A stretch of DNA of 64,000 bases from NCBI GenBank assembly GCA_039815375.1, contig JBCBZJ010000003.1, positions 192,001 through 256,000 of the forward strand, given 5' to 3'. Positions 7,062 through 43,390 of the stretch are shown piece after piece. This stretch comes from Verrucomicrobiota bacterium. Lineage in GTDB: Bacteria > Verrucomicrobiota > Verrucomicrobiia > Opitutales > Coraliomargaritaceae. The notes under the pieces are model-generated. The model did not search any database. It was not told the DNA's origin and worked only from the letters and a program-made list of their open reading frames with translations. Position numbers and translations under genes: made by a program. The stretch's first letter is position 1; each line of letters starts with the position of its first letter.

Positions 7062-7076
7062 AATGCGTGGCGTGCC

Positions 7077-9764: not shown

Positions 9765-12700
9765 TTAGAACGGGAATGCGGTTGTCACTGTTCCATCAGG
9801 TCTTACGACAACCCTTAATTGAGTCGCAGGATTACCCTGAATGTTCGTTCCAATTGGGCGGCCAAAATCTAGTTCAAAAATCTGTCCAGGACGATTTCTA
9901 GTATTTGGTCGAGCTGCGCCATTTCCTACCGTTTCATTGATCAAACTCTTCAGGTCACGCCCTGTGGTTCCCGGTGCAAATTTACCCGCATTTCGCGCAC
10001 CACTTGATGGGAAGTGACGTAATACAATATGATCTAAACCATCCTGTGTAAGTGTCGCAGTAGGTCTCGGTGCAGGCAATGCCTTCACTGTTTTGTTTGT
10101 GGCTTTGGATAATGTCTTACCAAGAGCAGTAGTAGCACTTTTAACGAAAGGTGGTGTAACTGCGAGAGTCGCGATGTCTAACGTGCTATCACTCAAACCT
10201 CTGCTGTCCGGTATCTCAGGTTGATACCTCACTTCACCTTCTGTAGTAACGACGAAGTCTTTGAGGACGTATACTTTTCCATCATCCCCCGGAATCTTCA
10301 GATAATTCTTTGTTGATTCAGCCTCCCCCCCACTTGCGAATCTATCAGTCTCGACTGTCGAATCGAGATCAGACTCAACTTCGTCACTTTCCAAGCCTTC
10401 CACAGCAGGAAGATCCTCGACAATTACATCGATAATCTCGGCAGCAGCACTAGCATTAACATGATGTTTTGCCGAAAAACTGGAAATATTTGGGCTCGAA
10501 GATGACTCTTCAAAAAAACGCAAAGACCCGGCTGAAGATCTTGCTTTGAACAACCGCTGTGCTCTTGTGTAACTCGCGTTAACAAGCTCAACTGTATACC
10601 CGCTGGGATCAACAAACCCAAGCGGGTTGTTACCAACATAGGTATAGCGGTTGTAGGTTTGCAGATTGAGTGGGAACTGCACCACAAGGTCAGCCGAAAG
10701 GAATCTGCCAAGTTGCGGGTCATAAATCCGTCCGTTCATATGGACCAGCCCGAGTTCGTCCATCATTTCATGGCCGGTGTAACCACGAGGAATCAGGTCG
10801 TCCTCATTCGTGGATGCGGTCGCCGCATCATCCGCACCCCAGGTGTAGGTTGATTGGCTCGTTGCCTCTCCAATCCAGTCTCCTGCATCACGCCGCTGCC
10901 CCCAAGGATCGTAACTGTAAACGGAGTCTTTACCGCTTTCGTCAGCTACTGGCGTATCGTTCGGGATGACGCCCCAATCTGTGATCGCCTGAATACTCCC
11001 GAGATTGCCGTAATGATAAACCAGATACTTGTGATCGGCAGACGAGCTCCCGTTCGGGTCCAGCTCAGCCGTGCCAACATTGTTACCCGGAGCTGGAATC
11101 GCTACGCGGACGGTTTTCATCTCCCAGTCGTCAGGACCAGCAGGTGTTGCATTTTTGTAGTCGAGTTCGACTGCGCCATCGGCAAAATAAAGCTTCTTGT
11201 CTGTAAACTGATTGGGCTGCCAATCGGACGGTGCTGCGCCACCCGATTGATCGAAGCCTTCAAACTTATAATGCGCGAGGCGCATCTGGTTTGCGCCATA
11301 GACGAAGGCACTGCCACGGATGTTCGAGGCATTTTCACGACCCATCCAACGTGGCTTATCAAAGCCTGCCCATTTGAACGACCATGCCTCACCGTTACCT
11401 GTGCGTGCATTTACATTACCGTTCGAATCGTAATCGATAGTGTAGTCGAAAGCAGAGGTGACCGCATGCACCTTGGTCGCGTGGTAGGCATAGGTGCCGC
11501 TACCCGTATCGGTGACGTCTTCCTTCGTCTTGATGTTGCCATTTGCGTGATACGTATAAGCGAGTGTCGTCGAACCAACGGAGGCATCCTCAAGCCTATT
11601 GAGCACATCGTAGCTGAAGGTCTCCGAAGTGGAGTGAACACCATCGCTGCGATAGACGAGGTTTCCGAGACCGTCGTATCGGTATTCATTTTCCTGTATG
11701 CCAGCCGAGGCCGAAATACCGCTCAAATCACCTGTGGTCGTGAAACGTAAATTTCCTGCCTTGGGGTCAAAATACTGATCCGTCCATGGACCATTCGGAC
11801 CACCCTTCTGGAAAAGAACGGGTCTGTCTAAATAATCGTAGCCCTCACTCGCATGCGCTTTCCACCAGGTCTTGCCGTGCGTATCCGTCACCTCGGTGAC
11901 ATAGCTCTCCGCATCGTATGAGGTGGTGTAGCCGTAGCTCTGCCAGACTCCCGGCTCCTGTGCACTGTCGTGCTCCAGGTGCGGCGGACGCCAAAAGTGA
12001 GTGACTGTCTCGGGACGGCTCAGGCTATCGAAAGCAGTATGGGTGTAGAACCACTTGTTATCAATATGCTGAAGCATGAGGTAGTTATTCCCCTTATCAT
12101 CGTAGTAGAATGAGTTCGCATTCGAGTAGTTTCGCAGACGGTCTTCGGGCGATTGCGACCAGCCCAAATCGAGTTCTTCTCGCTGAACGGAACCAATCCA
12201 TTGATGATCAGGATCGACGACCACGTGAGGCTTACCTGAATTTTCCGCCGTATCGTAATAATACCAACGCGTGGTTTCGACCGGACCATTATTGGGCTCA
12301 GTTATGGTGCGGGTTAGATTGCGACTGAGAATATCGTAGGTATTGACCGTGACATTCTGGTTCGCATCGGTCTGCTGGCGGTTCCGACCGAGCGAGTCGT
12401 AAACGTAATCCCACTGACCTTTGTCGGGATCGACAAGCTGCGTCTGATTTCCCAAAGCATCGTAGGCTACGGTCAACGAAACGTATTCTCCTGCGCCTTG
12501 ACGGGTCTTTGTTTCGGTCATTTGCCCGAAACCATCATAGATGAATTCAAGTGAAGGATCGGAGTCGCCAGAAGTTTGGGTGATGGCAGTCGACACGTTG
12601 TCGGCGTTCCAAACTTTAACCGTTTCGCCACGCACATTCTTGAGCGTCGTGGTGGTCTGCGGAGCCGGATCGACACCGTTCATCATGGGCGCATCCACTT

Positions 12701-15700
12701 CGACCTGCAAGACACGGCCAAGGTAGGTATTCGTTGTGACGGTTCCGTTTGGATCGGTTACAGTCTTCACACGCCCAGCGTCATCAAATGTGGAAATACT
12801 CCAATAAGCTGTTTCGCCTTGCTCATACGGGTTCGATTGGGCGATGACCTGTCCTCTGACGTTGTAGATGGTATCGGCAAAAGTGACCTTTCCTGCATAC
12901 CCCTCTGAAATAACCCGGATGACACGCCCCAATCGGTCGAAGTGTGTTGTAATCGGGACGGAAGCTGTCGAAACCTCCCGCGAGTAATACTTGGAAGTCA
13001 ACGACAGCCCAGTGGCACTTACTGCCGCAGGCACAGTTACAGACTGTGGCCCCAGCAGACCGGATTGACCATCGGTGCTATTCAGAGTTGTTACCGTGCT
13101 TAATCCACGCAGGTTATCCTGAGCACTGATGACTCGACCTAAACCGTCATATTCCGTCGTGGCACTTTCGTTGTTAATATCTGTTGCGGAAAGAACGCGT
13201 CCATACGCATCGAATGTCGAAGTGCTGGAGTGACCGTAAGCATTCTCAACCGTCTTCGGGAACCGACCTGTCGGATCAAAATCGCTTACTTCTGATGTGA
13301 TGATCTTGGAGCCGCCATCGATATCGTAGAGTGCGTCGGAAGTGAAATCTTCCAGTTCGGTCTTTTCCAATAAGCCTGTTGAGGAATACGTATACGTTTC
13401 CTTGGTGTTGAGATGTGAGCCTGCGGCTGCATTGAGCACAGGTGCTACGCTGTTCCCCGAACCAGTCGCTTGTGTATCCGTCGTCTTGGTTTCAACTTGC
13501 CCTTTGTCGTTATAGGTAAAACGAGTTACGGGACTGCCTTGATTGCTGGCTGTGGGGGTATCTGCAACAATCTGAGTCCACTCGATGAGATCATTACGAT
13601 TACCGTTCGCTGGTGAGGGTGCAAAATACTTATTGTGTGTGTCGGTCTTGTAACCATCCGAGTAATTGACGCGAATGCGCGTCATATTTCCGTAGGTGAT
13701 GTCTTGCGGTAAGCCGAAGCTCGGCACCTCAGTAAGCCAATCCATAAAGCCAACCGGACTTGCGTCCTGCGTACCGGGCGGTGCATTTGCAGGATCATCA
13801 AAGGAAGAGGGCAATTCAGTTTCGGGCAATGAAGCCGTATCCTGCTCATCGAACCACACGTATGTTTCGAGTTCGCTATGTGCTAGAGCACGATTTGCTG
13901 CGTATTCGTCGTTGTATTCGGTGAATAGACTTTCGGGATCGTCAGCATCCAATGTAAGTGGATTGGCGATAGAGAATTCCCAGCGCAACTCACGGGAGTG
14001 TGACATAAAGGGAAAAACCGTGCCAGTGAGGGAACCACCGGGCGCATCAATGACTTCATCGAAGACCACATCATTGTCCTGCGAAGTGATTGGCTGAAGG
14101 TCGAGTGAAGTGATGTTTCCATTATTATCATAGACGACATTGTCCGCACGGTAAGTCTGCTCACGCTTTACTAAGCCTGTCGTGGGGAAGGACTGTGAAA
14201 GGAACTGATATTTAAGAAGGTTAGTTTGGTGATCGAAAGTGACGAAGCTATGAAAACCTAAGTCGCCACGTCCTGAGAGGTCGGTCCTGAATCCAGAATA
14301 CTGGTAGGAGATGTGATACATATCGCTGTTGATCGTCTCACCGCTATCCCATTTTCCATTGCTATTGCTATCGATGTAGTCTGATCCGGCTCCTGAGTCT
14401 TTCCAAATATCCGAGACCACTCGGATGTGACCACTGCGCTTTTCTCTAATCGGATACTGTACTTCGGCACCCAGTGAGTAATGATCCTTACTGGTGGAAT
14501 TCGTATAATCGATATAGGTCACAGCACCCAAACCATCACGAATTTCAGTCAGGTAGTCGGCCACCTCGCCCTTATTGTAGGAGACACCAAAACTACCGGT
14601 TAAACCCCCAGTTATAAAATCGGCTAGCCCCGAGCCTCCGAATTCAGTATCTGTCTCAGGGAAGAAGCTTCCCGCAAAGACCTGCACATCCCAGTTTCCA
14701 CCAATATCTCTTGGCAAACTCCCGGGAACAAAGACGTAATGAGGCAGAAAGGAATACCCATTAGATAGATAAACTTTAAAGCCGCCGTGACTGGTGCTCC
14801 ATTTTACGATGTAATCATCTAACCCATCTCCATTCACATCTCGAAATGATGGCAGTCCGTTCTGACTGACGCTCGGAACATTTAAAGTCCAGTTCTCTGG
14901 CTCCTTCAGCCTTGAGCCGGTGTTGATCAGCACATGCAGGTCTCCATTTTTCCGATATACACCGTCCGGCAATCCGTCTCCATTGAAGTCGCCAAGACTA
15001 TCAATCTGACCAATTTCGTTGTAGCCATGATTACTCCACTTCTCTTCGGGGTGATAGCCATTACCGTTGGAGAGTTCGACGTATGTTCCAGAGCCTCCGT
15101 CGTAACGATTTTTGTAAATAAGAACGTAATCGCCCATACCATCGCCATTCATGTCGAAGCCTCCGAAACCGCTGGCATTTCCTCGCTTATCAGGCGCGTG
15201 CGTCACTGGTTGCTGATCGAATATACCCGTTGAGTAACCAGCTGGCACAGCTCCACGTTCACTTTCTACCAAATATTGATAGCTTTTTGTGTAATCATCA
15301 CGGCCATCACCATCAAAATCTGCCTTGGTGATACGACTTCCTCCAACTAGAGCGTAACCCTCTCCACTCGGGCCTAATGAAGGCTGCCCGTAGCTCAGAC
15401 TATCTGATCGGAAGAACGGGATCCGGTAAGCCGCCCAATAAGATCCCAGAGAGAAAACAATATCGTCTACGCCATCACCATCTGTGTCACCAACTCGTAT
15501 CGCCTGAATATTTCCGTAGAGATTTTCGCTGCCTCTAAAATCTACTGAGTAAAAATCTTCAAAGTCGTGATCGGGCCCACCGAGAACAACACCAATTGCA
15601 CTGTTCTGACCTACGTTGTCTCCGTAAGCAAAGACGAGGTCTGTTGCTCCGTCTCCATTAACATCGCCTGTCTGCATATCAACGTAAGCAGCCTCGTTCT

Positions 15701-16817
15701 CTCTTGCCAGATATCTTTGTTGAGCAAAAAAACTTACGTCAGGCATCGTATTGATATCGTTGATCCTGAACTTCTCATACGCTTTTTGCCCACCGGCTTC
15801 GTCAAGTTCACCACGATACTTAAAGCTGGTTGGCTCAATATTGTGGGCTACACCGTTTATATACGATGTCCGTTGCACGGACATCAATAGGCTACGAAAA
15901 GTGCTGTGGCTCACCTCATAATTAAGTGTATAGCGCGACAACTGCGTCTCGACGCTACCTGCTAGACTGTAGACATCAATATACTTGAGAATTTGGGTCG
16001 AAGGTATGGCTCCTCCCCACTTGTAGTATTGCCGATGGTCCAAACGATTTTCGTAGATGAATACGACTTTTGCGACAGGGTCTTCCTGTGATTCATTACT
16101 GCCATAATGAATTTCTTCTAGGACATACTCACCAGTGTTATTGCTGTTGGCATCGAGGATATTCCCGTAGTCATACTTAATGTAACCGTTCGTTGGGTTT
16201 TCAACCTGTCTGAGTTTCCATGCGTATGGGATATCGAGATGAACGTCACCCGCATTCCCACCCAGTAGAGTGGTTGCGTATCCGTCCGTTGCACCAAGGC
16301 CACCAAAATCCATGGTGATGCCACTCTTGGCTGTTAGCGTAAAGGTCGCACTCTCGTCTGTTGAAACAAGGTTGGCATCAATTTTAGAAAAATCCTCAAC
16401 TTCGGTGCGGTATTGTGTTCCTGCTGCACCATGGGTGCCTGTTACTGGAATAAGCCGTTTGCCATCAAGATACAGCTTGTCTTCAGCTGTAAAATTAACC
16501 TCTCGTAGGCTGCCGTCGCGAGCCATGATATTACGACCGCGAACAATTTGATTGGGATATCCATGAACCAAACTCCAACCAAGTCCGGCAACTCCATTTC
16601 CGTTATTACTGTTATAGTTTAGAGAGACACTAGGCTGCATTCCATTGACACCCGGCGGCAGCTCAATGGGGATTGAGTAATTTGCAGCCCCCTTATTATC
16701 GACTGAGAATTTAGCTGGTAAGGTGCCTACGAGATCGGTCGTGTTGGCATATGCAGAAGTCACAGCTCCGATCAAAAGTGCGGCAACTAGTGAAAATAAG
16801 TTAATCCGTTTAAACAT
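9765..16817 (-). CDS. Polymorphic toxin: Sec signal, SpvB-like domain, FG-GAP/VCBS repeats, YD/RHS repeats, RHS core, C-terminal predicted RNase
   Basis: FSVDNKGAANYSIPIELPPG (SpvB-like); GDVNGDG/DFDGDG repeats; YD repeats; RGYTGHE..GLVHMNGRIYDP..GRFLSAD; NNPLGFVDPSG; C-terminal HIVLRH..GKF..IG..LRVVV..G.VTTAFP. Confidence 0.92.
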   Translation of the reverse strand: MFKRINLFSLVAALLIGAVTSAYANTTDLVGTLPAKFSVDNKGAANYSIPIELPPGVNGMQPSVSLNYNSNNGNGVAGLGWSLVHGYPNQIVRGRNIMARDGSLREVNFTAEDKLYLDGKRLIPVTGTHGAAGTQYRTEVEDFSKIDANLVSTDESATFTLTAKSGITMDFGGLGATDGYATTLLGGNAGDVHLDIPYAWKLRQVENPTNGYIKYDYGNILDANSNNTGEYVLEEIHYGSNESQEDPVAKVVFIYENRLDHRQYYKWGGAIPSTQILKYIDVYSLAGSVETQLSRYTLNYEVSHSTFRSLLMSVQRTSYINGVAHNIEPTSFKYRGELDEAGGQKAYEKFRINDINTMPDVSFFAQQRYLARENEAAYVDMQTGDVNGDGATDLVFAYGDNVGQNSAIGVVLGGPDHDFEDFYSVDFRGSENLYGNIQAIRVGDTDGDGVDDIVFSLGSYWAAYRIPFFRSDSLSYGQPSLGPSGEGYALVGGSRITKADFDGDGRDDYTKSYQYLVESERGAVPAGYSTGIFDQQPVTHAPDKRGNASGFGGFDMNGDGMGDYVLIYKNRYDGGSGTYVELSNGNGYHPEEKWSNHGYNEIGQIDSLGDFNGDGLPDGVYRKNGDLHVLINTGSRLKEPENWTLNVPSVSQNGLPSFRDVNGDGLDDYIVKWSTSHGGFKVYLSNGYSFLPHYVFVPGSLPRDIGGNWDVQVFAGSFFPETDTEFGGSGLADFITGGLTGSFGVSYNKGEVADYLTEIRDGLGAVTYIDYTNSTSKDHYSLGAEVQYPIREKRSGHIRVVSDIWKDSGAGSDYIDSNSNGKWDSGETINSDMYHISYQYSGFRTDLSGRGDLGFHSFVTFDHQTNLLKYQFLSQSFPTTGLVKREQTYRADNVVYDNNGNITSLDLQPITSQDNDVVFDEVIDAPGGSLTGTVFPFMSHSRELRWEFSIANPLTLDADDPESLFTEYNDEYAANRALAHSELETYVWFDEQDTASLPETELPSSFDDPANAPPGTQDASPVGFMDWLTEVPSFGLPQDITYGNMTRIRVNYSDGYKTDTHNKYFAPSPANGNRNDLIEWTQIVADTPTASNQGSPVTRFTYNDKGQVETKTTDTQATGSGNSVAPVLNAAAGSHLNTKETYTYSSTGLLEKTELEDFTSDALYDIDGGSKIITSEVSDFDPTGRFPKTVENAYGHSSTSTFDAYGRVLSATDINNESATTEYDGLGRVISAQDNLRGLSTVTTLNSTDGQSGLLGPQSVTVPAAVSATGLSLTSKYYSREVSTASVPITTHFDRLGRVIRVISEGYAGKVTFADTIYNVRGQVIAQSNPYEQGETAYWSISTFDDAGRVKTVTDPNGTVTTNTYLGRVLQVEVDAPMMNGVDPAPQTTTTLKNVRGETVKVWNADNVSTAITQTSGDSDPSLEFIYDGFGQMTETKTRQGAGEYVSLTVAYDALGNQTQLVDPDKGQWDYVYDSLGRNRQQTDANQNVTVNTYDILSRNLTRTITEPNNGPVETTRWYYYDTAENSGKPHVVVDPDHQWIGSVQREELDLGWSQSPEDRLRNYSNANSFYYDDKGNNYLMLQHIDNKWFYTHTAFDSLSRPETVTHFWRPPHLEHDSAQEPGVWQSYGYTTSYDAESYVTEVTDTHGKTWWKAHASEGYDYLDRPVLFQKGGPNGPWTDQYFDPKAGNLRFTTTGDLSGISASAGIQENEYRYDGLGNLVYRSDGVHSTSETFSYDVLNRLEDASVGSTTLAYTYHANGNIKTKEDVTDTGSGTYAYHATKVHAVTSAFDYTIDYDSNGNVNARTGNGEAWSFKWAGFDKPRWMGRENASNIRGSAFVYGANQMRLAHYKFEGFDQSGGAAPSDWQPNQFTDKKLYFADGAVELDYKNATPAGPDDWEMKTVRVAIPAPGNNVGTAELDPNGSSSADHKYLVYHYGNLGSIQAITDWGVIPNDTPVADESGKDSVYSYDPWGQRRDAGDWIGEATSQSTYTWGADDAATASTNEDDLIPRGYTGHEMMDELGLVHMNGRIYDPQLGRFLSADLVVQFPLNLQTYNRYTYVGNNPLGFVDPSGYTVELVNASYTRAQRLFKARSSAGSLRFFEESSSSPNISSFSAKHHVNASAAAEIIDVIVEDLPAVEGLESDEVESDLDSTVETDRFASGGEAESTKNYLKIPGDDGKVYVLKDFVVTTEGEVRYQPEIPDSRGLSDSTLDIATLAVTPPFVKSATTALGKTLSKATNKTVKALPAPRPTATLTQDGLDHIVLRHFPSSGARNAGKFAPGTTGRDLKSLINETVGNGAARPNTRNRPGQIFELDFGRPIGTNIQGNPATQLRVVVRPDGTVTTAFPF

Positions 16818-21261: not shown

Positions 21262-21822
21262 CTAGGGACGAGCGTAGAAGACCGCATTAGGCTTGTCTTT
21301 TCCGGCTTTTCCGAGGCGTCGTGCAATTTTCCAACCATCCAGTTCGAGCTCAAGACTGCCGGGCATCTCGAAGCAGATCAATCCACCCTCGGCGACGATA
21401 GGCGAGATGTGTTCTACAAAAATATCAGGAATCCGGGTCTCGATCATGGCGTAGGGCGGGTCCATGAAGATGATATCAAAAGGTCCGAGACCGCGTGGGA
21501 TAGTGTAGATTTTTTGGGCCAGTAAAGGCCAGTCGTCGGAACTCGCGTTGCAGCTTTTAACCACAGCGGCGATATTCTTGCGCAGGCACGCCACTGCATC
21601 AGGGCTATTTTCGACGAATAGGCCGCCGCTTGCCCCGCGACTCATCGCTTCGAGGCCGTAGGCACCTGTGCCGGCGAAGAGATCGGCGATTCGGGCACCT
21701 TCGATACGTGAGCCAAGGGAGGAGAAGACGGCTTCGCGAAGTTGGTCTGTTGCGGGGCGTGTGCCATCGCCTTTGGGAGCGGTCAATTGAATGCCGCGAG
21801 CTTTACCTCCAGTGACTCTCAT
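21262..21822 (-). CDS. rsmD: 16S rRNA (guanine966-N2)-methyltransferase
   Basis: MRVTGGKARG, TRPATDQLREAVF, DLFAGTGAYGLEAMSRGA, DPPY. Confidence 0.92.
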   Translation of the reverse strand: MRVTGGKARGIQLTAPKGDGTRPATDQLREAVFSSLGSRIEGARIADLFAGTGAYGLEAMSRGASGGLFVENSPDAVACLRKNIAAVVKSCNASSDDWPLLAQKIYTIPRGLGPFDIIFMDPPYAMIETRIPDIFVEHISPIVAEGGLICFEMPGSLELELDGWKIARRLGKAGKDKPNAVFYARP

Positions 21823-22178
21823 GGCACTCCGTTCAAAGACATTTCTGAATAAAATAAACAATCAAATCCATTTTGAATGCCGAATATCTGAAAGAGGTTT
21901 CCAAACACTTTTCCCATGCGGATCGATCCGGCTTCTTTGTCGAACCGAAATTATGCCATAGGCTGAGCAACTGTGCTCCGCAAACAAAGATCATAGTTTC
22001 GAAAGCACGTTTGCATCGTTTTGGTAGAATTGGTTGTTACTATGGAAGTAGAACCAAGGTCTTTCATTTTTTGAGGCTGCACCATTGTATTTTGAGGAAA
22101 TGGCTGTCTTGGAATGCCCTGTGCTATTCATCTGGTCTCGAAGCTTTGTGAGAACCGAAGCAGAATCGGACCAAGTAG

Positions 22179-23564: not shown

Positions 23565-23848
23565 TCCAAAGAGCGCCCTTGGCGTCTGGCGTAATCTTTT
23601 GGCGAGTGAGTTTTTAATGCGTTGACAGTTTCCCCAACCGTTTAATTCTCCGTGCCGTAGCCATGGTTGTTGGTTCTGGTTGTTGGTAGTCGAATCATTA
23701 ACGCCTCGACGGCGACCATGAGCTACACCCCCGACCATCCTTTTTCGGCCAGCTGGATGGAAGCTTTCCTGAAGAACGGTTTTGTCAGAAAAATCCTGCT
23801 TTCCGGATTCCATGCTTATCTGGACATTTCTCTCGAAGAAACTCCATT

Positions 23849-24880: not shown

Positions 24881-25825
24881 CTAGGGAGTTTTGAGAACTG
24901 CTGTTTCTTTGAGGTAAGCAGTAATGGCATCTAGCTCCGTATCTCCGAAATCCTTGTGGCGGGGCATGATCGTATCGGGATAGACTGTCTTTGGGTCAAC
25001 GATGACGGAGCGAAGGTAGGCCTCGTTGTATTGAGCATGTGTTTGAAGGATGATAAAAGGACGCTCTGCAACATTGCCACCTACACTTCCGGGCCCGAGA
25101 TGGCAGGTGCTACATCGTTGTAGAAAGATTTGCCTTCCCGATCGGGCAATCTTGCTAAGCTGATCCATCGGAGGAGCGAAGTAGGGTGCGTATCGCTCTT
25201 CCGTATTTACCGCACGTATCCCTGACATTTGTGTCGCGGAGATCATGCCGAATTTCGGTGATTCCGGATAGCTGTCGAGCTGACCGTCGATAAAGACATA
25301 AAAAGGTTCCAGCGGTTCAATGTTACCTCCGAACCACGGCCAATTCCCGTCTTTGGGGCTTTCATTATTGTAGTAGAGCAGTAGCAGTGGATTCTTCTCT
25401 TCAATGTAGCTGATCTCCATGAAACTTTCCCAGCGGTCGGTGCATTCGAGCACGAGTCCGTCGCCGTGACTTTGGAGTCCGAGCAAATTGATTAGAGACT
25501 TGAGCGGGATGACACCAAGTTGCGCTTTGCCAGCTTTGGGAACAATCTCGGATTCAATGAGCTTGTAACCATCCAGTTTGGCGAGATCACTTCTTGTCAG
25601 ATATCCGTCCTTAGATTGCCAGGCTCCCGAAAAAAATAGTGAATCCTCCGCAGGCTTTTCAGATCGAAGAGTCAATCGACTTTCGGACCCTTGTGATGAT
25701 GTGCAAAATAGTAAGGCTGAAAATACGATCCACAGAGCATTCGGAGGAAAAAAAGCTCTTGCTGAACCGCGAAGAGGCTTAGTCCAGAGCGGGCTTTGCC
25801 CAAGCATATCTATTCGCATTCGCAA
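24881..25825 (-). CDS. Exported fusion: degenerate sulfite-oxidase/molybdopterin-binding-like domain plus class I cytochrome c
   Basis: CSTCH heme motif, distal MP (IMPRH); paralog of 33101-34006. Start uncertain. Confidence 0.75.
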   Translation of the reverse strand: MRMRIDMLGQSPLWTKPLRGSARAFFPPNALWIVFSALLFCTSSQGSESRLTLRSEKPAEDSLFFSGAWQSKDGYLTRSDLAKLDGYKLIESEIVPKAGKAQLGVIPLKSLINLLGLQSHGDGLVLECTDRWESFMEISYIEEKNPLLLLYYNNESPKDGNWPWFGGNIEPLEPFYVFIDGQLDSYPESPKFGMISATQMSGIRAVNTEERYAPYFAPPMDQLSKIARSGRQIFLQRCSTCHLGPGSVGGNVAERPFIILQTHAQYNEAYLRSVIVDPKTVYPDTIMPRHKDFGDTELDAITAYLKETAVLKTP

Positions 25826-25884
25826 AGACTTTCTCCTCGAAGGCTTAAAATTTTGAAGTCTGGTAGAGCCTCGATCTCGAGGTA

Positions 25885-25930
25885 TAAAAATAAGGTCGGG
25901 CGACAGATTGCCGCCCGACCAGTTTTTTTT
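25885..25930. terminator. Bidirectional-type intrinsic terminator downstream of the TonB receptor
   Basis: GGTCGGGCG..CGCCCGACC with T-rich tails on both strands. Confidence 0.75.
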
Positions 25931-25942
25931 AACAAACCCCGA

Positions 25943-28456
25943 CTAGAATTTGTATTTGAAGGAAAAGATGTAAGTCCGCTCGGGTGCTTTTGTGACCAGT
26001 GTATTCGCTGCGAAAACCGGATCAGAGCCGAGGAAGTAATCCTCATCCGTCAGGTTTTCGATTGAAGCGCCGATCTCCCATTTTTCAGTGGAGTACTTTG
26101 CTCCGATACCAAAAATTAGTGCATCCGGGAGTTCAATTTGATGGTCAAAATCGAGGAAAAACTCTTCCTGATAGATCATGCTTGCGGTGATCTCAAAACC
26201 GTTCTCGAAGTCGTATGCAGCGAATAGCTTGAAGACCTGCTCAGGCGTTCCGGGATAGACAAGGTCGGTGTTCTCGGGAGGAATGCCGAAATTACCGTCA
26301 ACGTAACGGTCGCGACCATCAAAGCTACCAGTGCCGAAGTTGCTGTTGAGTTCTCCTCCATATAAAGCCCAGTCCGCTTCAGAGAAGGGGATTGTCCGAA
26401 ACGGCAATGGATCCAGGCGCCTTACTTCCTGGGAAGTAAAGGAACCGATAACAGTAAGCTGGTCCGTGACGAGCCAGGTAGCTTCAACTTCGATGCCATC
26501 TCCTTCGAGGGCCTCACTTGCACCGCTGCGTCCGTTGAATGCACTTTGCTCCCACTCATAGTAGGCGATTGACGCGTAGAGTTTGTTGTCCAGCAGACCT
26601 GCTTTGACCCCAACTTCCCACATTTCGTTATCAGCAAAGTTCGCTTCGCCAACGACTGCACCACCTTGGGTTGGATCCATCGATGTGCCCTCTTGATAAT
26701 TGCCGTATAGGAATACCCCTTCGATCGTCTCAAGGTTGAAACCGAGACTGAAATTGATGAAATCCGTATCTCCGTCTCCGTCGTCTTCGAAGGCTATAAT
26801 GTCCAGCGGATCAACTGACTGAAGCTCTGAAGGAACATCGGCATCGAATTCTGCGATCTCACCACGAACCGATGCATTAATAGTAAGGCGATCGTCCAGA
26901 AGCTTTGATTGGCTGTTGGCGAATAAGGCATATTGCATAAGCTCGGATTCAACGTTGCCGCCGATTCCGCCGAAACCACCATCCCAGAAGTTTACTCCGT
27001 CAAGAGTGGTCTGGCCACCTGCAAGAATAATCGAGTTCGCGCTGATGATTGGTTGAGTGATGTCACGACGACTGAATGGCTCGACCCAAAAGTCCTGAAG
27101 TTGCTTCGCATCAGTGTAGCGTAAACTTACACCTAGATTGACGGTGGTGAACGGGATCAACGTGCGCTCTGTTATGAAAGCTTTGGTCGCCAGAACGGTC
27201 TGCTCCGAGTCAAAGGCATACCCATACGAAGAAAGTTTTTCAGTTTCAAGCGACTCGGCTAAGCCCTTGATTGTAAAGATTCGATCCGAATTGGAATCGA
27301 AGACCAAATCACCAAACAGGACGATGTTGGTCGAATCAGCGAAGTCACTTGGGTCCGTTAGCACCTCATTCCCGTCAATAGACTGCGTGACGGCCTGACC
27401 CCCGTTATCAAAATACTGTTGAGTGTAGACGTATTTTTCAACCCCGTCGGAATCCACAATGAACGCCATGTCATTGATATCGCCAAACTGAGGAACCAGT
27501 GCCTCAGCGACTGATCTCTCGAGGGCAAGTGCTACGTCATTACTCACCTGATTCCGATCGGCAAATCCAAGATTGTTACCGTTGGTGATGTTGATCGCCT
27601 CGCCAATCACATACTGTCCATCATCGATAAGCTCTTGTGTGGGTCGGTTCCAACCAGCGTTTTCGTTTGATTTATAATCAAAATACTCTCCGCCGACAAA
27701 AACGGACATCCCATCTTTTGGACGGAACTTCATGGATGCATAGACCGAGGTGAAATCGTTCGCAAAGTTATCGTAATAACTCTCACCGTCCTGACTCGTT
27801 ATCGAAACTCGAAAGGCGGCTGGTATTTCACCCGGGAGGAGAAAAGGGGAGCCATAATCTGCAGTGACCGTCTTTCGCCCCCAGTTATCCACTTCAAGTT
27901 CGATTGAACCGGATTCTTCGTCGAAGAATGGCGACTTCGGGATCAGGTTGACAAAACCGCCAACAAGCGTCGGTGAATAATCAGCAGGCGCAGGACCTTT
28001 GACGACTTCGATCGCCTCCAACGAACCGAATGACAAAGGCATCTCATTCCGATTAAAGGCACGAAGCATTCCGTTAAGGTAAGTGCCGCCCCTTACGCCA
28101 CGAATTGTAGGTGCTCCCGGCACGCCGTAGTAGTTGATTGCCTGGGTTCCGGCGCCGATCTTCTCAAGGTCTCGAAGGTCATCAATGTTGAACTTGTCGA
28201 GGATCTCAGGTGAAAGGAGTGTGACCGAGCGCGGCACTTCAAAAACGCTTACCGAGTCCCCAAAGAGCCCGGATATCTCCCGATCTGTAGGCATCACCGT
28301 ATCGACAAGCGCCGATTCGGTTTCGTTGAGGATGAAGGTTTCAAGGACGATGGTTTCATCTTCCTCGTCCGCAAGGAGCGAACTGATTCCAACGGCTGGT
28401 AGCAAGAAGATGCATCGAAGCATCTTCGAGGTCTGTATTCGCATATTGGCTGTCAT
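25943..28456 (-). CDS. TonB-dependent receptor, probably for oxidised purines or pterins
   Basis: Signal peptide; TonB box ETIVLETFIL; PRSVT; IEVVKGPA; ENLTDEDY; terminal YKF; riboswitch upstream. Confidence 0.88.
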   Translation of the reverse strand: MTANMRIQTSKMLRCIFLLPAVGISSLLADEEDETIVLETFILNETESALVDTVMPTDREISGLFGDSVSVFEVPRSVTLLSPEILDKFNIDDLRDLEKIGAGTQAINYYGVPGAPTIRGVRGGTYLNGMLRAFNRNEMPLSFGSLEAIEVVKGPAPADYSPTLVGGFVNLIPKSPFFDEESGSIELEVDNWGRKTVTADYGSPFLLPGEIPAAFRVSITSQDGESYYDNFANDFTSVYASMKFRPKDGMSVFVGGEYFDYKSNENAGWNRPTQELIDDGQYVIGEAINITNGNNLGFADRNQVSNDVALALERSVAEALVPQFGDINDMAFIVDSDGVEKYVYTQQYFDNGGQAVTQSIDGNEVLTDPSDFADSTNIVLFGDLVFDSNSDRIFTIKGLAESLETEKLSSYGYAFDSEQTVLATKAFITERTLIPFTTVNLGVSLRYTDAKQLQDFWVEPFSRRDITQPIISANSIILAGGQTTLDGVNFWDGGFGGIGGNVESELMQYALFANSQSKLLDDRLTINASVRGEIAEFDADVPSELQSVDPLDIIAFEDDGDGDTDFINFSLGFNLETIEGVFLYGNYQEGTSMDPTQGGAVVGEANFADNEMWEVGVKAGLLDNKLYASIAYYEWEQSAFNGRSGASEALEGDGIEVEATWLVTDQLTVIGSFTSQEVRRLDPLPFRTIPFSEADWALYGGELNSNFGTGSFDGRDRYVDGNFGIPPENTDLVYPGTPEQVFKLFAAYDFENGFEITASMIYQEEFFLDFDHQIELPDALIFGIGAKYSTEKWEIGASIENLTDEDYFLGSDPVFAANTLVTKAPERTYIFSFKYKF

Positions 28457-28740
28457 TGTGTTGTTGGTTCGTGGTTAGTTGTTAGTCGAATCATAAAATG
28501 GAAAGTGATTAACGGGTGGTGATGCCTGACCGCTTGTAGATGCCTGACGACAGGCATCGCTCTAAAGGCAACAAGCGAAACACGAACCGCTGAAAAATAC
28601 TCTCGAACCTCCCTGCAGTATTTTTGCAGGTGGAGAATTACTTTCAGGTTGCGAGGGAAAAGGCTCCTCGCAGCCTGAAGTCCCATTGGCGATGCGGTGG
28701 TCATTGTTGGATCATTTTTGCGCGGCCGAGACCACGTCTC

Positions 28741-28786
28741 GGAGCAATGACCCGCACGAATTTTTCGCGCTGACTGCTTCTACTCC
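28741..28786 (-). ncRNA. NMT1-motif (xanthine-I) riboswitch aptamer
   Basis: GGAGUAGAAGCAGUCAGCGCGAAAAAUUCGUGCGGGUCAUUGCUCC matches the NMT1 layout as I recall it (GGAGUAGAAGC..CAG-hairpin-..AUUGCUCC). Context is NMT1/THI5 and deaminase genes. Confidence 0.75.
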
Positions 28787-28800
28787 TAAGCGATTAATTG

Positions 28801-28817
28801 AGCTTAAGTCGTGCCAT
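28801..28817 (-). promoter_or_regulatory. sigma54 promoter driving the riboswitch leader
   Basis: TGGCACGACTTAAGCT (GG-N10-GC); predicted +1 about 28790, 4 nt before the aptamer. Confidence 0.65.
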
Positions 28818-28866
28818 TCGAGTCCTAATGGTGATTTTTTGAATAAATATCACCTGATTCACTCAA

Positions 28867-29886
28867 TCATTTCTGGAAGGAAGCATCAAATCGCGTAGGC
28901 AGGAACTTGAGTGGAGCGACTTCATCAACTGTCATTTCCTTGTCGAGAAGGCCAATTTCGCTGAGTGTGTTAATCTGGTCTTGTATCCTGCTTTCACGGA
29001 TCAGTCCGGTTTCGTCGATTTGATTCCTTCCGCTGATCAACGCGTTCTCCTTCATTGCGCTCAAACTATAAGCGAGAAACTCGTCAGTCATTTTTGGATT
29101 CAACGATGCGATTTCGGCATTCGCTTTTTCCCGAGGCCCTTTCATGTAGCTCTCCCATCCGCGGATTGATGCAGCAATGAATGCCTTTACGATCTCAGGC
29201 CGATTTGTGGCAAGCGCTCGGCTCGTGTAGATTACGCGGTAAGGATCAAAGCCTGTATCCGCAAGCAGGAGCGTCCGCGTCGGCGTGTCTTCCTTAGCCA
29301 TGTAATAAGGCTCGTTTGTGATAAAGCATTGTTGGATGAACTCCGGATCGCTGATAAATCGACTCATGCCGTAGTCGAGTGGAATGACGTCGACATCAAT
29401 GTCGAACTTCCGACGCAGGACATCGACAAAGACCGCTCCCGGTGTGGTCATGATCTTCTTTCCGTCGAGGTCGCCGAATTCTTTTACATCGCTGCCAGCG
29501 TGGACAAGCAGAGCTTGGGGATCGTGCTGCATAAATGAGCCGGTAATGACAAGAGGAACTCCGCGCGCCGACTGAATGATGATGTCGTCACTACGGCCGA
29601 TCGCAAAGTCGGCATTCTTGCTCGCTACCTTTTGGTAGGTCATCGCGTTCGGGCCGCCCTGATTGATGGTTACGCTAAGGCCAACTTCTTCATAGTAGCC
29701 TTCGGCTACGGCTTGGTAGAAGCCACCGTGCTCGGCTTGTGCATACCAATCGGTCTGCAGAACGATCCGGGTGAGCCCATTCTCGTCGGTTGTTTGCTTC
29801 TTCCCGCAGGCAGAAAACGCGAGCAAGATAAAGAGAGCAGTCGTGGTTCGAATGAGTGCTTGGATTTTGTTTTCGAAGATCTTCAT
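28867..29886 (-). CDS. NMT1/THI5-like ABC substrate-binding lipoprotein
   Basis: Lipobox FSAC; LQTDWYAQAEHGGFYQA; QGGP; ASIRGW. Confidence 0.9.
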   Translation of the reverse strand: MKIFENKIQALIRTTTALFILLAFSACGKKQTTDENGLTRIVLQTDWYAQAEHGGFYQAVAEGYYEEVGLSVTINQGGPNAMTYQKVASKNADFAIGRSDDIIIQSARGVPLVITGSFMQHDPQALLVHAGSDVKEFGDLDGKKIMTTPGAVFVDVLRRKFDIDVDVIPLDYGMSRFISDPEFIQQCFITNEPYYMAKEDTPTRTLLLADTGFDPYRVIYTSRALATNRPEIVKAFIAASIRGWESYMKGPREKANAEIASLNPKMTDEFLAYSLSAMKENALISGRNQIDETGLIRESRIQDQINTLSEIGLLDKEMTVDEVAPLKFLPTRFDASFQK

Positions 29887-31571: not shown

Positions 31572-32963
31572 TTAGGCGCTTGCTGCAGTCGTCGCAAACG
31601 GGTTTTTCTCGTAGGTTGCCATCTTCCCGGGATTCATGAGTGCCTTCGGGTCAACTTCATCTTTCAACGCACGCTTCTCGACAATGTCATCGTGCACACC
31701 ACCTCCTTCCATGGTGAAGGTGTGAGGATTTGCGACACCCACACCGATACTTTCGCAGTAGTCGATGATCTCATTGAGGCGCGCTTCGTTCTTATACCGG
31801 ATCAAGGGAATGCCGCCGACCGCCACACCGGTTTTCTCCTGTTTGAATTTTGAGTTTCCAAGCGTCAATTCGAGGTGCATCAAAAACTCGTCGCCGAACT
31901 TTGCCTTCAACTTGTCGAGATTACCTTTGTAGTCCTCTCCAAATCCGCACTGGAGATAGGTCATGCTCGGATCCGCCTTGATCGCCCAAAGGGTGGTGTG
32001 GTTCCAGGTATAGTCTGTGATAAAGGGCGGTTTGGGCGGTTCGCCAAAGGGCTTGGAAAAGACGTTTGCAATGCCCTTTTTCTCCGCCGATGCAATCACC
32101 TGCTCTGCGTCCGGCATGTCGACCATAAGAAATGAACTGTGGACGCCCTCGGGAATGTATTTCTTCAAAGGTTTGAAATAGCTCGAGATCGGATCTTCGA
32201 AAACTGTCACTAGCCGTTTTGGAATGTCCGGCTCTTCAGCAATCTCATAGCTCCAGTCGAGTAGATGATGCCAGTCATCATGGGTGAAAATCATCTGTTG
32301 CCAGGGATAGGCTTTTGCAAGACGCATCTCTGCCTCGACCATAATTCCGGTTGTGCCGTAGGTGTGAAGTGCTTTGATGCAATCACGCTCCTCCAGCTTT
32401 ATGAAGCGCGGCTCTGCCTCCATAGTCATCAAAGTGACCGACTTCATATTATCCTCGTAGGCAATCCCCCCGTTTCTAATCGAACCGATTCCTCCGGAGC
32501 CTCCACATAGAAAACCACCGAACGAGCTGATTGCCCAGGTCGAAGGCATACAGCGGAGCTCCCAGCCTTTCTCTCGTGCAGCGAGTTCAATCTTACGAAG
32601 GGTTGCCCCAACTTCAGCATGTGCCACACCATCGACATTATAAATAGTATTGAGCCCCATCAAGTCGATGACGGCACCTCCATATAGAGGAATGAGCTGT
32701 CCGTAATTACCGGAACCGCCTCCACGGAGTGTGACGGGCACCTCGTTTTTGTAGAGCAATGAAACCACACTCCTTAGTTCCTCCTTGCTTTTCACAAGTA
32801 GTGCGACCTCCGCTTTTTTCTCTTCAAGGAGCGCTTTCAGGACCGGCGAATACCAGTAGAAGTCCTTGGAATACTTCTCGGTCTTTTCTCCGGTTACAAT
32901 CTGGTCTTCAGGCAATAGCTCGCCAAGTTGAGCGAGCACACTTTGGCTAATTGTTTTTGTCAT
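31572..32963 (-). CDS. FAD-binding oxidoreductase (FAD_binding_4 / VAO-type)
   Basis: SKDFYWYSP, RGGGSGNYGQ, GGFLCGGSGG, NPHT, DPKALMNPGK. Confidence 0.85.
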   Translation of the reverse strand: MTKTISQSVLAQLGELLPEDQIVTGEKTEKYSKDFYWYSPVLKALLEEKKAEVALLVKSKEELRSVVSLLYKNEVPVTLRGGGSGNYGQLIPLYGGAVIDLMGLNTIYNVDGVAHAEVGATLRKIELAAREKGWELRCMPSTWAISSFGGFLCGGSGGIGSIRNGGIAYEDNMKSVTLMTMEAEPRFIKLEERDCIKALHTYGTTGIMVEAEMRLAKAYPWQQMIFTHDDWHHLLDWSYEIAEEPDIPKRLVTVFEDPISSYFKPLKKYIPEGVHSSFLMVDMPDAEQVIASAEKKGIANVFSKPFGEPPKPPFITDYTWNHTTLWAIKADPSMTYLQCGFGEDYKGNLDKLKAKFGDEFLMHLELTLGNSKFKQEKTGVAVGGIPLIRYKNEARLNEIIDYCESIGVGVANPHTFTMEGGGVHDDIVEKRALKDEVDPKALMNPGKMATYEKNPFATTAASA

Positions 32964-32987
32964 GGTAGTCGAATCGATAAGGACATA

Positions 32988-33004
32988 AGCAGTTTTTCTG
33001 CCAT
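32988..33004 (-). promoter_or_regulatory. sigma54 promoter of the oxidoreductase-ABC operon
   Basis: TGGCAGAAAAACTGCT (GG-N10-GC). Confidence 0.55.
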
Positions 33005-33073
33005 TCGCAAGAGTGTGCCAATTTGACGGCAACTCGGACGCAAGTTGTTATGATGCCAAGTCTGAACCGGATT

Positions 33074-33100: not shown

Positions 33101-34006
33101 GTGAAATCTTTTCGACTACCGATTTCTCAGGTCGCTGGAACCTGCTGTATTCTTTTTCATTCTGTTTCTCCGCTTCTACTTGCCGTTGCGCTTGGAGCTA
33201 TGATCGCGGCGATTACCTCGGTTAGGGCGGAAGCGGCATCGACCACAGAATCAGCAACTAGTCTGGACCTACTGGTTGAGTTCGCCGGTAGCGACCGCGA
33301 ACCAATCACCATACCTCGCGAGAAGCTCTATACAATGGGGGTGGAAAAGGTCGAAGTCATGATTCCCTACGCAGAAAAAACGGTGACCTGTACAATTCTG
33401 CCGGTTCGTAAGCTCTATGCCTATCTCGAAGTGGATCACTCGATTGCATCAGCAGCTGAAAGTTATGACGGATATTATTCAATCTACCCGACAAAATTTG
33501 TTCAGGACTATGATCCTTATTTGGTTCTCGATTTCGACGGAGTGGAGAAAGGGAGCCTGAAGCTCGAAGGCACGCCGGAGCTTGGTCCGTTTTATATTAC
33601 TTTTGCCGCTCCGCTTGTGCAGGGAAGTGATGAAATGCCGGATCCAGACAATAAGCGTCCATTTGGTGTTACAAAAATGACGCTGGGTAGCTACGACGAT
33701 CTGCTTGGTTTCATGTATGAGGGTGCTTTTGCCAATCTCGATGCAGCAGCGAAATATGGAAGAGAGCTTTACACGAACAACTGCATGAGCTGCCACGCCT
33801 GGACCGCTGAAGGCCCCGGAGGAGTCTTCTCAAACCGGACCGCCCAGATTCTCTCTGTGCACGCCAAGTTCAATCGGGATTATTTTAGTAAATACATCAT
33901 CAACCCGACCCAATTTATTCCCGATGTTAAAATGCCGAAACACCCGCACTATGCCGATGAAGAGATCGATGCGCTCATTGCTTTCCTTTCCAAAATTGAA
34001 ATCTAG
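33101..34006 (+). CDS. Exported degenerate SUOX-like domain plus cytochrome c fusion (paralog 2)
   Basis: SYDGY, LGPFYI, CMSCH heme motif, KMPKH. Confidence 0.8.
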   Translation: MKSFRLPISQVAGTCCILFHSVSPLLLAVALGAMIAAITSVRAEAASTTESATSLDLLVEFAGSDREPITIPREKLYTMGVEKVEVMIPYAEKTVTCTILPVRKLYAYLEVDHSIASAAESYDGYYSIYPTKFVQDYDPYLVLDFDGVEKGSLKLEGTPELGPFYITFAAPLVQGSDEMPDPDNKRPFGVTKMTLGSYDDLLGFMYEGAFANLDAAAKYGRELYTNNCMSCHAWTAEGPGGVFSNRTAQILSVHAKFNRDYFSKYIINPTQFIPDVKMPKHPHYADEEIDALIAFLSKIEI

Positions 34007-42522: not shown

Positions 42523-43317
42523 TTAGAGCCGGATCGCTTGCCAAACCCGAATGAGCGACTCGATAAGTTCGGGCAGCTCTTCGAGCGGGATTTGGCTGGC
42601 AGCATCGGATATGGCCTCGGCTGGATTCGGGTGAGTTTCCAGAAAGACACCATTTGCTCCCGCAGCGAGAGCTGCCCGGGCAAGAGCGGGCACATGTTCG
42701 CGTTGGCCGCCGCTGACTCCCCCGGCTGCTCCTGGCAGTTGCACGCTGTGCGTTGCGTCAATTACGGTAGGATGTCCGTTGATTGCCATGATGCTAAAGC
42801 TACGCATGTCGACGACGAGATTCTGGTAGCCGAAGGTGGTGCCGCGGTCGGTCTGCCAGATTTCGGCAGCGCCGGCTTCCTCCAGCTTGTTGGTGACAAA
42901 CTCCATTTCGTAGGGTGAGAGGAATTGACCTTTCTTGACGTTGATGGCCCGGCCGGTTGCTGCAGCGGCCACGAGGAGATCGGTTTGCCGGCAGAGAAAA
43001 GCAGGAATCTGTAGGGCGTCGACGACTGCGCCGACTGCAGGGCACTGCTCGGGTAGATGGATGTCGGTGATGGTTTTGAAGCCGTATTCGGATTGAATGG
43101 TCTTGAAAATCTCGAGCCCCTCGTCGAGCCCGGTCCCACGGTTGCTTTTGATCGAAGTGCGGTTGGCTTTATCGAAAGATCCCTTGAAGAGAATATTCAG
43201 TTCCTCGTGCTTCTCCTGAAGTGAAGCGAGCACGTCGGCAACTTGACGGCAGGTATCCAGACTTTCAAGCGAGCAGGGGCCAGCCAGTAGTAGAAGCTTG
43301 TCAGGGTCGTAAATCAT
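42523..43317 (-). CDS. kdsA: KDO 8-phosphate synthase
   Basis: [40 protein letters not shown]. Confidence 0.95.
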
Positions 43318-43390
43318 TCCCGCATTTAGGGGGTCAAGCGGCTTTAGGCCAAGCCGAATGCGGGGAGACATTCTGCTTTTATTTCAAGCC

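Follow-up and report, generated by a model that had tools for sequence, protein, structure and literature searches.

The window (the whole 64-kb stretch of DNA that was analysed) comes from a verrucomicrobial genome of 3.56 Mb (66 contigs, 99.9% complete), here called G000. On its minus strand it carries a gene for a TonB-dependent receptor, preceded by a long leader that begins with an aptamer of the xanthine (NMT1) riboswitch class. The original prediction had proposed such a riboswitch at this place, and the concern here is how the leader is built and what it may do to the receptor gene. The locus was compared with others of the same build, giving a receptor-type set of five: G000; G032, G017 and G072, which are three related genomes of genus g10; and the metagenome contig L020. 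A further set of 28 metagenome loci was retrieved by a pattern built from the two halves of the aptamer, and L020 is the only one among these 28 with the receptor-type build. The features of the locus, from upstream to downstream on the minus strand, are as follows.

28867–29886, minus strand: gene for an NMT1/THI5-like ATP-binding cassette (ABC) substrate-binding protein (Pfam PF09084, E 6.7e-34), the last gene of the upstream operon

28801–28816, minus strand: sigma-54-type −24/−12 promoter motif TGGCACGACTTAAGCT (TGGCAC-N5-AAGCT), conserved in G032, G017, G072 and L020 and before riboswitch-less orthologues

28737–28790, minus strand: xanthine (NMT1) riboswitch aptamer (RF03054), with helix P1 formed by 28786–28781 and 28746–28741, and P2b by a GCGCGA/UCGUGC stem

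28726–28742, minus strand: hairpin H1 (CCGAGAC-GUG-GUCUCGG), overlapping the last 2 nt of P1 and without a U tract

28694–28706, minus strand: anti-aptamer box CAAUGACCACCGC, which pairs with aptamer strand 28752–28745 (plus GCG) and contains an AUG at 28704–28702

28453–28704, minus strand: putatively translated upstream open reading frame of 83 codons, without a Pfam match, whose stop overlaps the receptor start (AUGA)

28521–28679, minus strand: leader hairpins specific to G000, at 28679–28643 and 28625–28593, together with GAUGCCUG (28558–28551) and its two alternative partners GUCAGGCAUC (28548–28539 and 28530–28521)

28457–28497, minus strand: native A/C-rich 5' untranslated region (5'UTR) of the receptor (UUUAUGAUUCGACUAACAAC...CCAACAACACA), repeat family D1, mean unpaired probability 0.66

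25943–28456, minus strand: gene for a TonB-dependent receptor of 837 aa (Pfam Plug, E 4.3e-08; TIGR01783, 93.5 bits, below cut-off), the gene proposed as regulated

25884–25920, minus strand: intrinsic terminator of the receptor transcript, a 12-bp stem then UUAUUUUUAU

The whole window was scanned on both strands with Infernal cmscan, using 4227 Rfam families and the gathering-score cut-off. The only match was to RF03054 (Xanthine/NMT1), at 28790–28737 on the minus strand, with 54.7 bits against a cut-off of 36 (E 2e-09) and coverage of model positions 1–56 of 56; it is also the sole copy in the 3.56-Mb genome. The original prediction had recognised an NMT1 aptamer in a 46-mer at 28786–28741 and had named an Infernal search with the Rfam model as the way to check it. 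The search is clearly positive, and the 46-mer spans exactly P1 to P1 within the match. Relatives score 47, 45 and 43.1 bits.

The crystal numbering of Xu et al. 2021 (PMC8266621) was mapped onto the Rfam alignment of the window. The pocket and junction nucleotides G7, A8, A9, G10, C11, G35, A39 and U40 are all present in the window aptamer: G7–C11, G35, A39 and U40 correspond to Rfam positions 11–15, 41, 45 and 46, and GAAGC and GGGUCAUUG are found in the alignment. The P1 pairs U5–G42 and A6–U41 are also kept. Over the five loci, 5 of the 17 predicted pairs show compensatory changes, all of them in P2b; P1 is invariant and hence uninformative for covariation. By every feature examined the element is an unexceptional representative of an aptamer class already known, and it is almost certainly a genuine xanthine/urate-class (NMT1) aptamer.

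Two departures from the Rfam consensus, an A at position 16 and a U at position 43, are common to all the relatives found. The first is equivalent to the crystal mutant G12A, which had a 7-fold lower affinity for xanthine in the crystal construct, at a position that is called poorly conserved (PMC8266621). The second makes the middle P2a pair a U.U in all five loci. Their presence in all five receptor-type aptamers, together with the weaker binding of G12A, could mean that the fold has been kept for a different ligand, such as another oxidised purine or a pterin. This is improbable, given that the bases that touch the ligand are unchanged and that Infernal scores the U.U pair as non-negative (no NC mark). 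The A16/U43 form is moreover found in the 28 metagenome loci; among the 11 with downstream genes scanned, seven precede a gene for a 2-oxoglutarate (2OG)-Fe(II) dioxygenase and three precede NMT1 binding-protein genes.

Of the 28 metagenome loci, 18 (L017–L019, L021, L023–L025, L028, L030–L033, L035, L037, L038 and L042–L044) also have in common a long conserved extension (CAGTCGTCGACCGG ... GGTTGGCGGCGATGG ...) behind the aptamer. A 2OG-Fe(II) dioxygenase gene comes next in all three of the extension loci that were scanned (L021, L031 and L044), and the extension is probably a conserved expression platform.

Upstream of the aptamer, the position of the GC at −13/−12 places the predicted +1 at about 28790, which is the first base of the aptamer and lies 4 nt 5' of P1. 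The sigma-54 consensus consists of GG and GC elements at canonical spacing, TGGCAC-N5-TTGCW. The strict pattern of this type occurs four times on the two strands of the 64-kb window, and a single match is weak alone. The support for the promoter therefore comes from conservation across loci: TGGCAY-N5-WWGCT is found 12–15 nt 5' of P1 in all five riboswitch loci, and the same −24/−12 motif stands before the orthologous receptor genes of genus g12, all four of which are without a riboswitch. The strict pattern was also found in two of the eight named loci that carry receptor homologues. The genome contains rpoN (197.6 bits) and three strong Sigma54_activat (enhancer-binding) proteins, none of them encoded on the window's contig, and a scan of 28300–29000 for sigma-70-type promoters found none. 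The sigma-54 start that had been placed about 4 nt before the aptamer agrees with TGGCACGACTTAAGCT at 28816–28801, and as a predicted start it gains support from this conservation. Transcription is likely to be sigma-54 dependent, with an input of the nitrogen-limitation type as a possibility.

Near-consensus sigma-54 motifs (TTGGCACAGCGGTTGCT and TGGCACGCCACTTGCAT) were also seen elsewhere, 13–23 nt before the NMT1 aptamers that precede NMT1 binding-protein genes in metagenome loci L026, L039 and L029. The pairing of a sigma-54 promoter with an NMT1 riboswitch may be general, and its recurrence suggests a gate with two inputs, nitrogen status and purine level.

The original prediction had further claimed that the 3' strand of the aptamer can pair instead with 28691–28706, in a fold that excludes the aptamer. 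This is borne out by a perfect complement of 8 nt (28752–28745 with 28706–28699; 100%), extended by a GCG/CGC past a 2-nt bulge. Strand GGUCAUUG is used by both the aptamer and the anti-aptamer fold, and the two therefore exclude each other. The pairing is kept in all five loci: a wobble-tolerant box, C[AG][AG]UGAC, lies 31–40 nt after P1 in each, and the chance of such a box at an offset of 25–48 nt is 95–153 in 20000 shuffles per leader. Where the box differs between loci, the changes are only A to G or C to U, opposite a U or G of the invariant aptamer strand, and pairing is kept. L020 has two boxes in frame, AUGACAUCAAUGACC.

For the switch region of G000, the predicted energy is −27.6 kcal/mol with P1 enforced and −28.3 kcal/mol with the anti-aptamer enforced, and the unconstrained minimum free energy structure (−31.7 kcal/mol) contains the anti-aptamer helix. 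The corresponding energies for P1 and anti-aptamer are −29.3 and −32.0 in G032, −31.1 and −28.9 in G017, and −26.8 and −31.7 in G072. In all four leaders folded, the two states thus differ by no more than about 5 kcal/mol, and on these modelled energies a ligand of micromolar affinity would be able to shift the equilibrium from one to the other.

The rest of the leader is much more variable. Outside the aptamer the five leaders are only 49–55% identical pairwise, and what is kept across them is the promoter motif, a hairpin directly after P1, the box and the A/C-rich 5'UTR motif. The hairpin (H1 in G000) occupies the same place in all five loci with unrelated sequences. As a whole, the 361-nt leader of G000 is predicted to be more stable than 100 of 100 shuffles (z −3.34). 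The further hairpins and the repeat that had been noticed in it are present at the places stated: those given as about 28651–28680 and 28590–28650 were found as inverted repeats at 28643–28679 (arms 28643–28656 and 28666–28679; 14 nt, 93%) and 28593–28625 (arms 28593–28601 and 28617–28625; 9 nt, 100%). The repeat, GATGCCTGAC, occurs twice, at 28521–28530 and 28539–28548, and both copies are complementary to 28551–28558. These hairpins of G000 are not conserved in the other four leaders.

An intrinsic-terminator mechanism was considered and rejected. The leader strand has a single weak match with a 5-bp stem (28591–28574), which is not conserved, and H1 lacks a U tract; no stem followed by a clear U tract was found in the leader, while intrinsic terminators are clearly used elsewhere, including after the receptor.

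The same comparison bears on whether the Rfam match is merely a decaying relic with no regulatory role. Its distribution is patchy (4 of the 101 genomes of the family), and orthologous receptors do without it. The aptamer core, the spacing, the hairpin and the box have however been kept in five leaders that are otherwise about 50% identical, and the score is far over the cut-off. We regard a relic as very improbable, and the element as a riboswitch that very probably regulates the receptor gene in cis.

The box has a second property, which provides a clue as to how this regulation could work. The start codon within it (AUG, or GUG in G072) opens a reading frame that runs through most or all of the leader. 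The length of the frame is 83 codons in G000, 80 in G032, 68 in G017, 84 in G072 and 57 in L020. Relative to the receptor AUG, its stop lies at +4 nt in G000, +64 in G032 (inside the receptor gene), −45 in G017, −1 in G072 and −74 in L020. Frame lengths were assessed using dinucleotide shuffles of each leader, giving p values of 0.057 (G000), 0.027 (G032), 0.029 (G017), 0.015 (G072) and 0.105 (L020). The frame was first noticed in G000 and the test was made on the other four loci afterwards; combined by Fisher's method, the p value is 2.8e-4 over all five loci and 6.5e-4 over the four replicates alone.

A start codon is a plausible target in this organism. An SD-like (Shine-Dalgarno-like) motif is found at the usual place in only 4 of 42 long open reading frames of the window, where some starts are no more than the longest-frame guess, and no SD-like site was found before the start of either the upstream frame or the receptor. 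Judged on the open reading frames of the window, the genome is nearly without Shine-Dalgarno use. Since there is no Shine-Dalgarno site that could be masked, the available lever is to mask the start codon. Similar pairing may act directly on the regulated gene in other loci: in G311, a genome of another family of the order, and in the high-GC metagenome loci L040 and L027, the main gene behind the aptamer begins AUGAC, which is complementary to GUCAU of the aptamer.

In G000 the start context of the upstream frame is a near-duplicate of that of the receptor (ACAAUGAC; GAWCCAACAA, minus strand). The copies of ACAATGAC are at 28452–28459 and 28700–28707, and those of GAWCCAACAA at 28461–28470 and 28704–28713. 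Through this duplication the aptamer strand has a further complement around the AUG of the receptor itself, which holds for G000 alone. That the initiation region of the receptor is sequestered was rejected as a general mechanism: the region is predicted to be mostly unpaired, with mean unpaired probabilities of 0.59–0.79 in the five leaders, and an 8-bp long-range helix of GGUUCGUG with CACGAACC is found in G000 only.

The idea that the frame is the relic of the N-terminus of a dioxygenase or binding-protein gene captured together with the aptamer found no support. A tblastn search of seven dioxygenases and three binding proteins against the five leaders gave nothing below E 0.1, and was no better than controls.

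On the basis of these observations, we propose that the aptamer controls the receptor through the box. In the absence of xanthine or urate, CAAUGACC would be taken up in a helix with strand GGUCAUUG, in which the AUG at 28704 would be inaccessible. Binding of the ligand would hold P1 and P2a and free the AUG, and ribosomes would translate the leader up to the receptor start, with which the frame overlaps at AUGA. Leader translation could then allow expression of the receptor by termination and reinitiation (as in G000 and G072), by shielding the 250-nt leader from Rho, or by both. This would fit all five loci, in which translation would run beyond the receptor start or end at most 74 nt short of it. 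Rho is present in the genome, and C exceeds G mildly in the four leaders counted. Because leader translation would license the receptor in this scheme, an ON switch is predicted. That the ligand-free 3' strand pairs with the box holding the start codon of the upstream frame, and that the aptamer controls the receptor in this way, we consider probable. The view that the upstream frame is translated and is itself the regulated step we favour only slightly.

The alternative for the frame is that the box is an anti-aptamer strand and nothing more, that the frame is not translated, and that the switch works by RNA structure alone; it could, for instance, uncover or mask a site at which Rho loads or an RNase acts. 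The AUG would then be a by-product of complementarity. The frame peptides are not conserved, and L039 has a similar box with a frame of only 6 codons, as read by eye; the presence of Rho and the excess of C over G in the four leaders counted also speak for this alternative. It leaves unexplained why this very frame is free of stops in all five leaders, whose identity is only about 50% (the Fisher p of 2.8e-4 above), and why L020 has two boxes in frame. We think it unlikely.

The direction of the switch is a separate question. With the same aptamer and box, the logic could be OFF: the ligand would free the frame, and the translating ribosomes would block independent initiation at the receptor, and thus xanthine or urate would repress it. 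The only tested member of the class is an OFF switch (PMC7373994). The initiation region of the receptor is predicted to be open and works without the leader in the orthologues, which could make ON the default; the frame of G032 runs 64 nt into the receptor gene; and it would be physiologically reasonable for uptake driven by a nitrogen-limitation promoter to be subject to feedback repression. The frame ends 45 nt (G017) and 74 nt (L020) before the receptor AUG, which is however too far to occlude it. The AUGA and UAAUAUG junctions of G000 and G072 are furthermore the classical geometry of positive translational coupling. Repression by the ligand thus seems rather unlikely to us, and, provided that the frame is used, we lean somewhat towards a ligand that turns expression ON rather than OFF.

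Several points weigh against the proposal that ligand-dependent translation of the frame licenses the receptor. Complementarity to GUCAUUG, the invariant strand of the aptamer, dictates the AUG of the box, whose presence is therefore not independent evidence. The peptides share only the initial MT and match no Pfam family. The p values of single loci are modest, and the combined p is 0.02 when genus g10 is counted once (with its worst value) and G000 is left out. Stop positions vary, with direct coupling fitting only two of the five loci, and in L039, which is from another lineage, a sigma-54 motif, a long leader and a similar box are combined with no more than the 6-codon frame mentioned above. 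The receptor initiation region is mostly unpaired in predictions, as noted, and no conserved structure explains the need for an upstream frame. The Rho step is conjecture, with a bias of C over G that is only mild, and a gene for an enhancer-binding protein is absent from the 64-kb window. To these should be added the A at Rfam position 16, the U.U pair in P2a, and the OFF behaviour of the one tested member (PMC7373994). Finally, that this RNA acts as a switch is a prediction from sequence.

The receptor itself is divergent. Its best relative in the PDB is the enantio-pyochelin receptor (E 2.6e-09), over the plug region only. The gene is followed immediately by a strong terminator (12-bp stem and TTATTTTTAT), and the regulated unit is therefore monocistronic, consisting of the receptor alone. 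Directly before the gene, an A/C-rich stretch (GAUUCGACUAC...AAC) extends up to the receptor AUG in all five leaders.

Orthologues of the receptor were found in 9 of the 101 genomes of the family, including four from genus g12 at 59–62% identity. RF03054 was found in none of the 19 genomes of that genus. The four g12 orthologues have TGGCATGGCTGTTGCT or a close variant of it, which in three of them is followed after 13 nt by GATTCGACTACCAAC...ATG; L005 is similar. The promoter motif and the 5'UTR motif are thus adjacent where there is no aptamer, and about 330 nt apart where there is one. For this reason the aptamer, hairpin, box and variable leader behave as a cassette of about 330 nt that has been inserted or deleted, and the orthologues without an aptamer form a clean natural pair, with and without cassette, for experiments.

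The 5'UTR motif also occurs elsewhere. GATTCGACTAC is found three times in the window, always on the minus strand (32961–33020, 23663–23701 and 28457–28497), a number that 8 of 100 shuffles reach. One copy precedes the receptor, one precedes the ATG of a flavin adenine dinucleotide (FAD) oxidase gene at 32963, 13 nt after a −24/−12-like TGGCAGAAAAACTGCT, and one is an orphan that is followed by 16 codons. G032 has a similar orphan copy of the GATTCGACTAC type with a decayed promoter. The motif looks like a shared 5'-proximal leader element of the sigma-54-type units of the island described below.

Eight named loci (L004–L011) carry other homologues of the receptor. Seven are from Verrucomicrobia, Opitutales, Opitutia or Puniceicoccaceae metagenome-assembled genomes (MAGs), and the eighth is from a MAG of Candidatus Azotimanducaceae, which we take to be gammaproteobacterial. 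None of the eight has RF03054 before the receptor homologue at the gathering score; none was found at E up to 1 in L004–L009, nor in any of five of their whole genomes. In the Candidatus Azotimanducaceae MAG (L004), the receptor homologue is 54% identical and is followed by a gene for a Vut_1 (PF02592) transporter at 6594–7295. The Vut_1 family presumably includes the queuosine-precursor transporter YhhQ, and this neighbour hints, for the second time, that purine-like bases are handled by the receptor clade. A riboswitch reports what the cell senses rather than what the receptor carries, and for this reason the ligand that it predicts for the receptor is an inference as to cargo.

The original prediction had taken this to be a likely verrucomicrobial copy of a class reported mainly from Proteobacteria, and both parts agree with the present results. 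KdsA of the window is 85% identical to that of a 'Verrucomicrobia bacterium', 83–90% identical to those of genomes of the same genus or family, 62–66% to Opitutales/Puniceicoccaceae MAGs and 33% to the Azotimanducaceae MAG. These identities and the loci of the receptor homologues support a verrucomicrobial placement, in or near Opitutales. The 649 NMT1 representatives of Yu and Breaker 2020 (PMC7373994) were 'found exclusively in Proteobacteria'.

The genomes surveyed for RF03054 were samples, scored under strict filters, and absence refers to the genomes searched. The four positive genomes of the family are G000 and all three of genus g10, with none among the eight other genomes of G000's own genus. 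Of 151 sampled genomes of the order, only G000 and G311 were positive, and of 151 sampled from the phylum only G000 itself. The aptamer of G311 (L059 1501–1553, minus strand) is a weak match of 37 bits in which the position of crystal G7 is a C. Its neighbours are a TonB receptor gene on one side, with a product 24% identical to the window receptor, and on the other side genes for a 2OG-Fe(II) dioxygenase and an NMT1 binding protein; the AUGAC start of the dioxygenase is 45 nt after the aptamer. In G032, G017, G072 and L020 the order is in each case binding protein, −24/−12 motif, aptamer, hairpin, box, long leader and receptor.

The neighbourhood is typical of the class in most respects. Upstream of the promoter there is a same-strand operon of a FAD_binding_4 oxidase, an ABC ATPase, a permease and the NMT1/THI5-like binding protein that ends at 28867. 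The last of these (28867–29886) is 35% identical to the binding protein encoded directly behind an NMT1 aptamer in metagenome locus L029. The cluster between 22 and 42 kb contains two major facilitator superfamily transporters, three NMT1-type binding proteins in all, an ABC transporter and two amidohydrolases, as well as two proteins with a C-terminal cytochrome c domain, DUF2165, RidA-family and creatininase-family proteins, and a class-I glutamine amidotransferase. Genes for NMT1/THI5-like proteins, tauA-type ABC transporters, dioxygenases or amidohydrolases are the company described for the class, and the gene company given for the motif (PMC7373994, PMC5737381) matches the cluster except for the TonB receptor, the gene directly downstream, which is a new association. 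'TonB' is absent from the main text of PMC7373994, and 'TonB' and 'receptor' are absent from its supplementary files 1–2; a limited literature search found nothing joining a xanthine riboswitch with TonB, or the NMT1 riboswitch with Verrucomicrobia.

The cluster (21862–42522, 20.6 kb) is flanked by an rsmD-like gene (21262–21861) and kdsA (42523–43371), which are only 59 nt apart in G002, a genome of the same genus. The entire 20.6 kb, riboswitch included, are therefore inserted DNA in G000. Compared in pieces, they are 63–83% identical to genus g10, and by these sequence comparisons the island is horizontally acquired. No flanking direct repeat of at least 14 nt was found at its ends, and there is no clear step in G+C content (0.47–0.53 in the island against 0.47–0.54 in the flanks).

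Within the island, the FAD_binding_4 oxidase gene (31572–33032, minus strand) lies next to genes for two roughly 300-aa proteins, at 33101–34006 on the plus strand and 24881–25825 on the minus strand, which have a cytochrome c domain at the C-terminus and an N-terminal part without assignment. The pairing of oxidase and cytochrome is reminiscent of flavocytochrome c hydroxylases such as p-cresol methylhydroxylase. Elsewhere in the window, 9765–16817 (minus strand) encodes a protein of 2350 aa with SpvB, FG-GAP and RHS repeat matches.

The aptamer class is thus a known one. What is new is the phylum and the gene with which the aptamer is associated, and the expression platform is unusual. The class, reported only from Proteobacteria, is extended to Verrucomicrobiota in at least three lineages (G000, genus g10 and G311). 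A TonB-dependent receptor is added to its regulon, and a divergent, unassigned receptor clade is thereby tied to oxidised-purine or N-heterocycle metabolism. The leader provides an example of how riboswitch control can be arranged in a genome poor in Shine-Dalgarno sites, with a start codon as the pairing partner. A more far-reaching interpretation, which we offer tentatively and think doubtful as a whole, is that the xanthine aptamer, hairpin, start-codon box and upstream frame form a portable cassette of about 330 nt, placed between a sigma-54 promoter and the native receptor 5'UTR in Shine-Dalgarno-poor Verrucomicrobia; that this is an ON switch reversing the published logic; and that it points out an outer-membrane receptor that would be the first devoted to oxidised purines or related N-heterocycles for use as nitrogen sources.

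The locus resembles several known systems in part. The adenosylcobalamin riboswitch of btuB and TPP (thiamin pyrophosphate) riboswitches precede TonB-dependent receptors, as this one does, and in those cases the riboswitch senses the cargo of the receptor or a metabolite derived from that cargo. The aptamers are different, and a small ligand of the nucleobase type would be an unusual cargo for such a receptor. The riboswitches of mgtA and ribB act through Rho. They share with the present locus a long leader without an intrinsic terminator, in which translation or structure decides Rho loading; here a role for Rho is suggested only by its presence in the genome and by the mild excess of C over G.

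The closest relative is the xanthine riboswitch (NMT1 motif, RF03054; PMC7373994, PMC8266621) itself, with which the window element shares P1, J1, P2a, J2, P2b and all the pocket nucleotides, and likewise a neighbourhood of NMT1/THI5-like binding proteins, an ABC transporter and amidohydrolases. It differs in being from Verrucomicrobiota, whereas the published representatives are exclusively from Proteobacteria (PMC7373994), and in its predicted direct control of a TonB-dependent receptor. Its leader is about 280 nt long, whereas the published ones are short, and its aptamer strand pairs with the start codon of an upstream frame rather than with a Shine-Dalgarno site. From pairing with the start codon, release on binding of the ligand is predicted, and the switch is probably ON as opposed to the published OFF (PMC7373994); these differences concern the expression platform and not the aptamer.

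In mechanism, a precedent is the B12 riboswitch of ppe2 in M. tuberculosis, which controls a translated leader on which expression of PPE2 depends by termination and reinitiation (Kipkorir et al. 2024, PMC11260477). There, as is proposed here, what the riboswitch controls is whether an upstream frame is translated, and expression of the main gene hinges on this. The aptamer class, the ligand and the phylum are different, and the ppe2 riboswitch is an OFF switch with experimental proof, whereas at the present locus everything past the aptamer is deduced.

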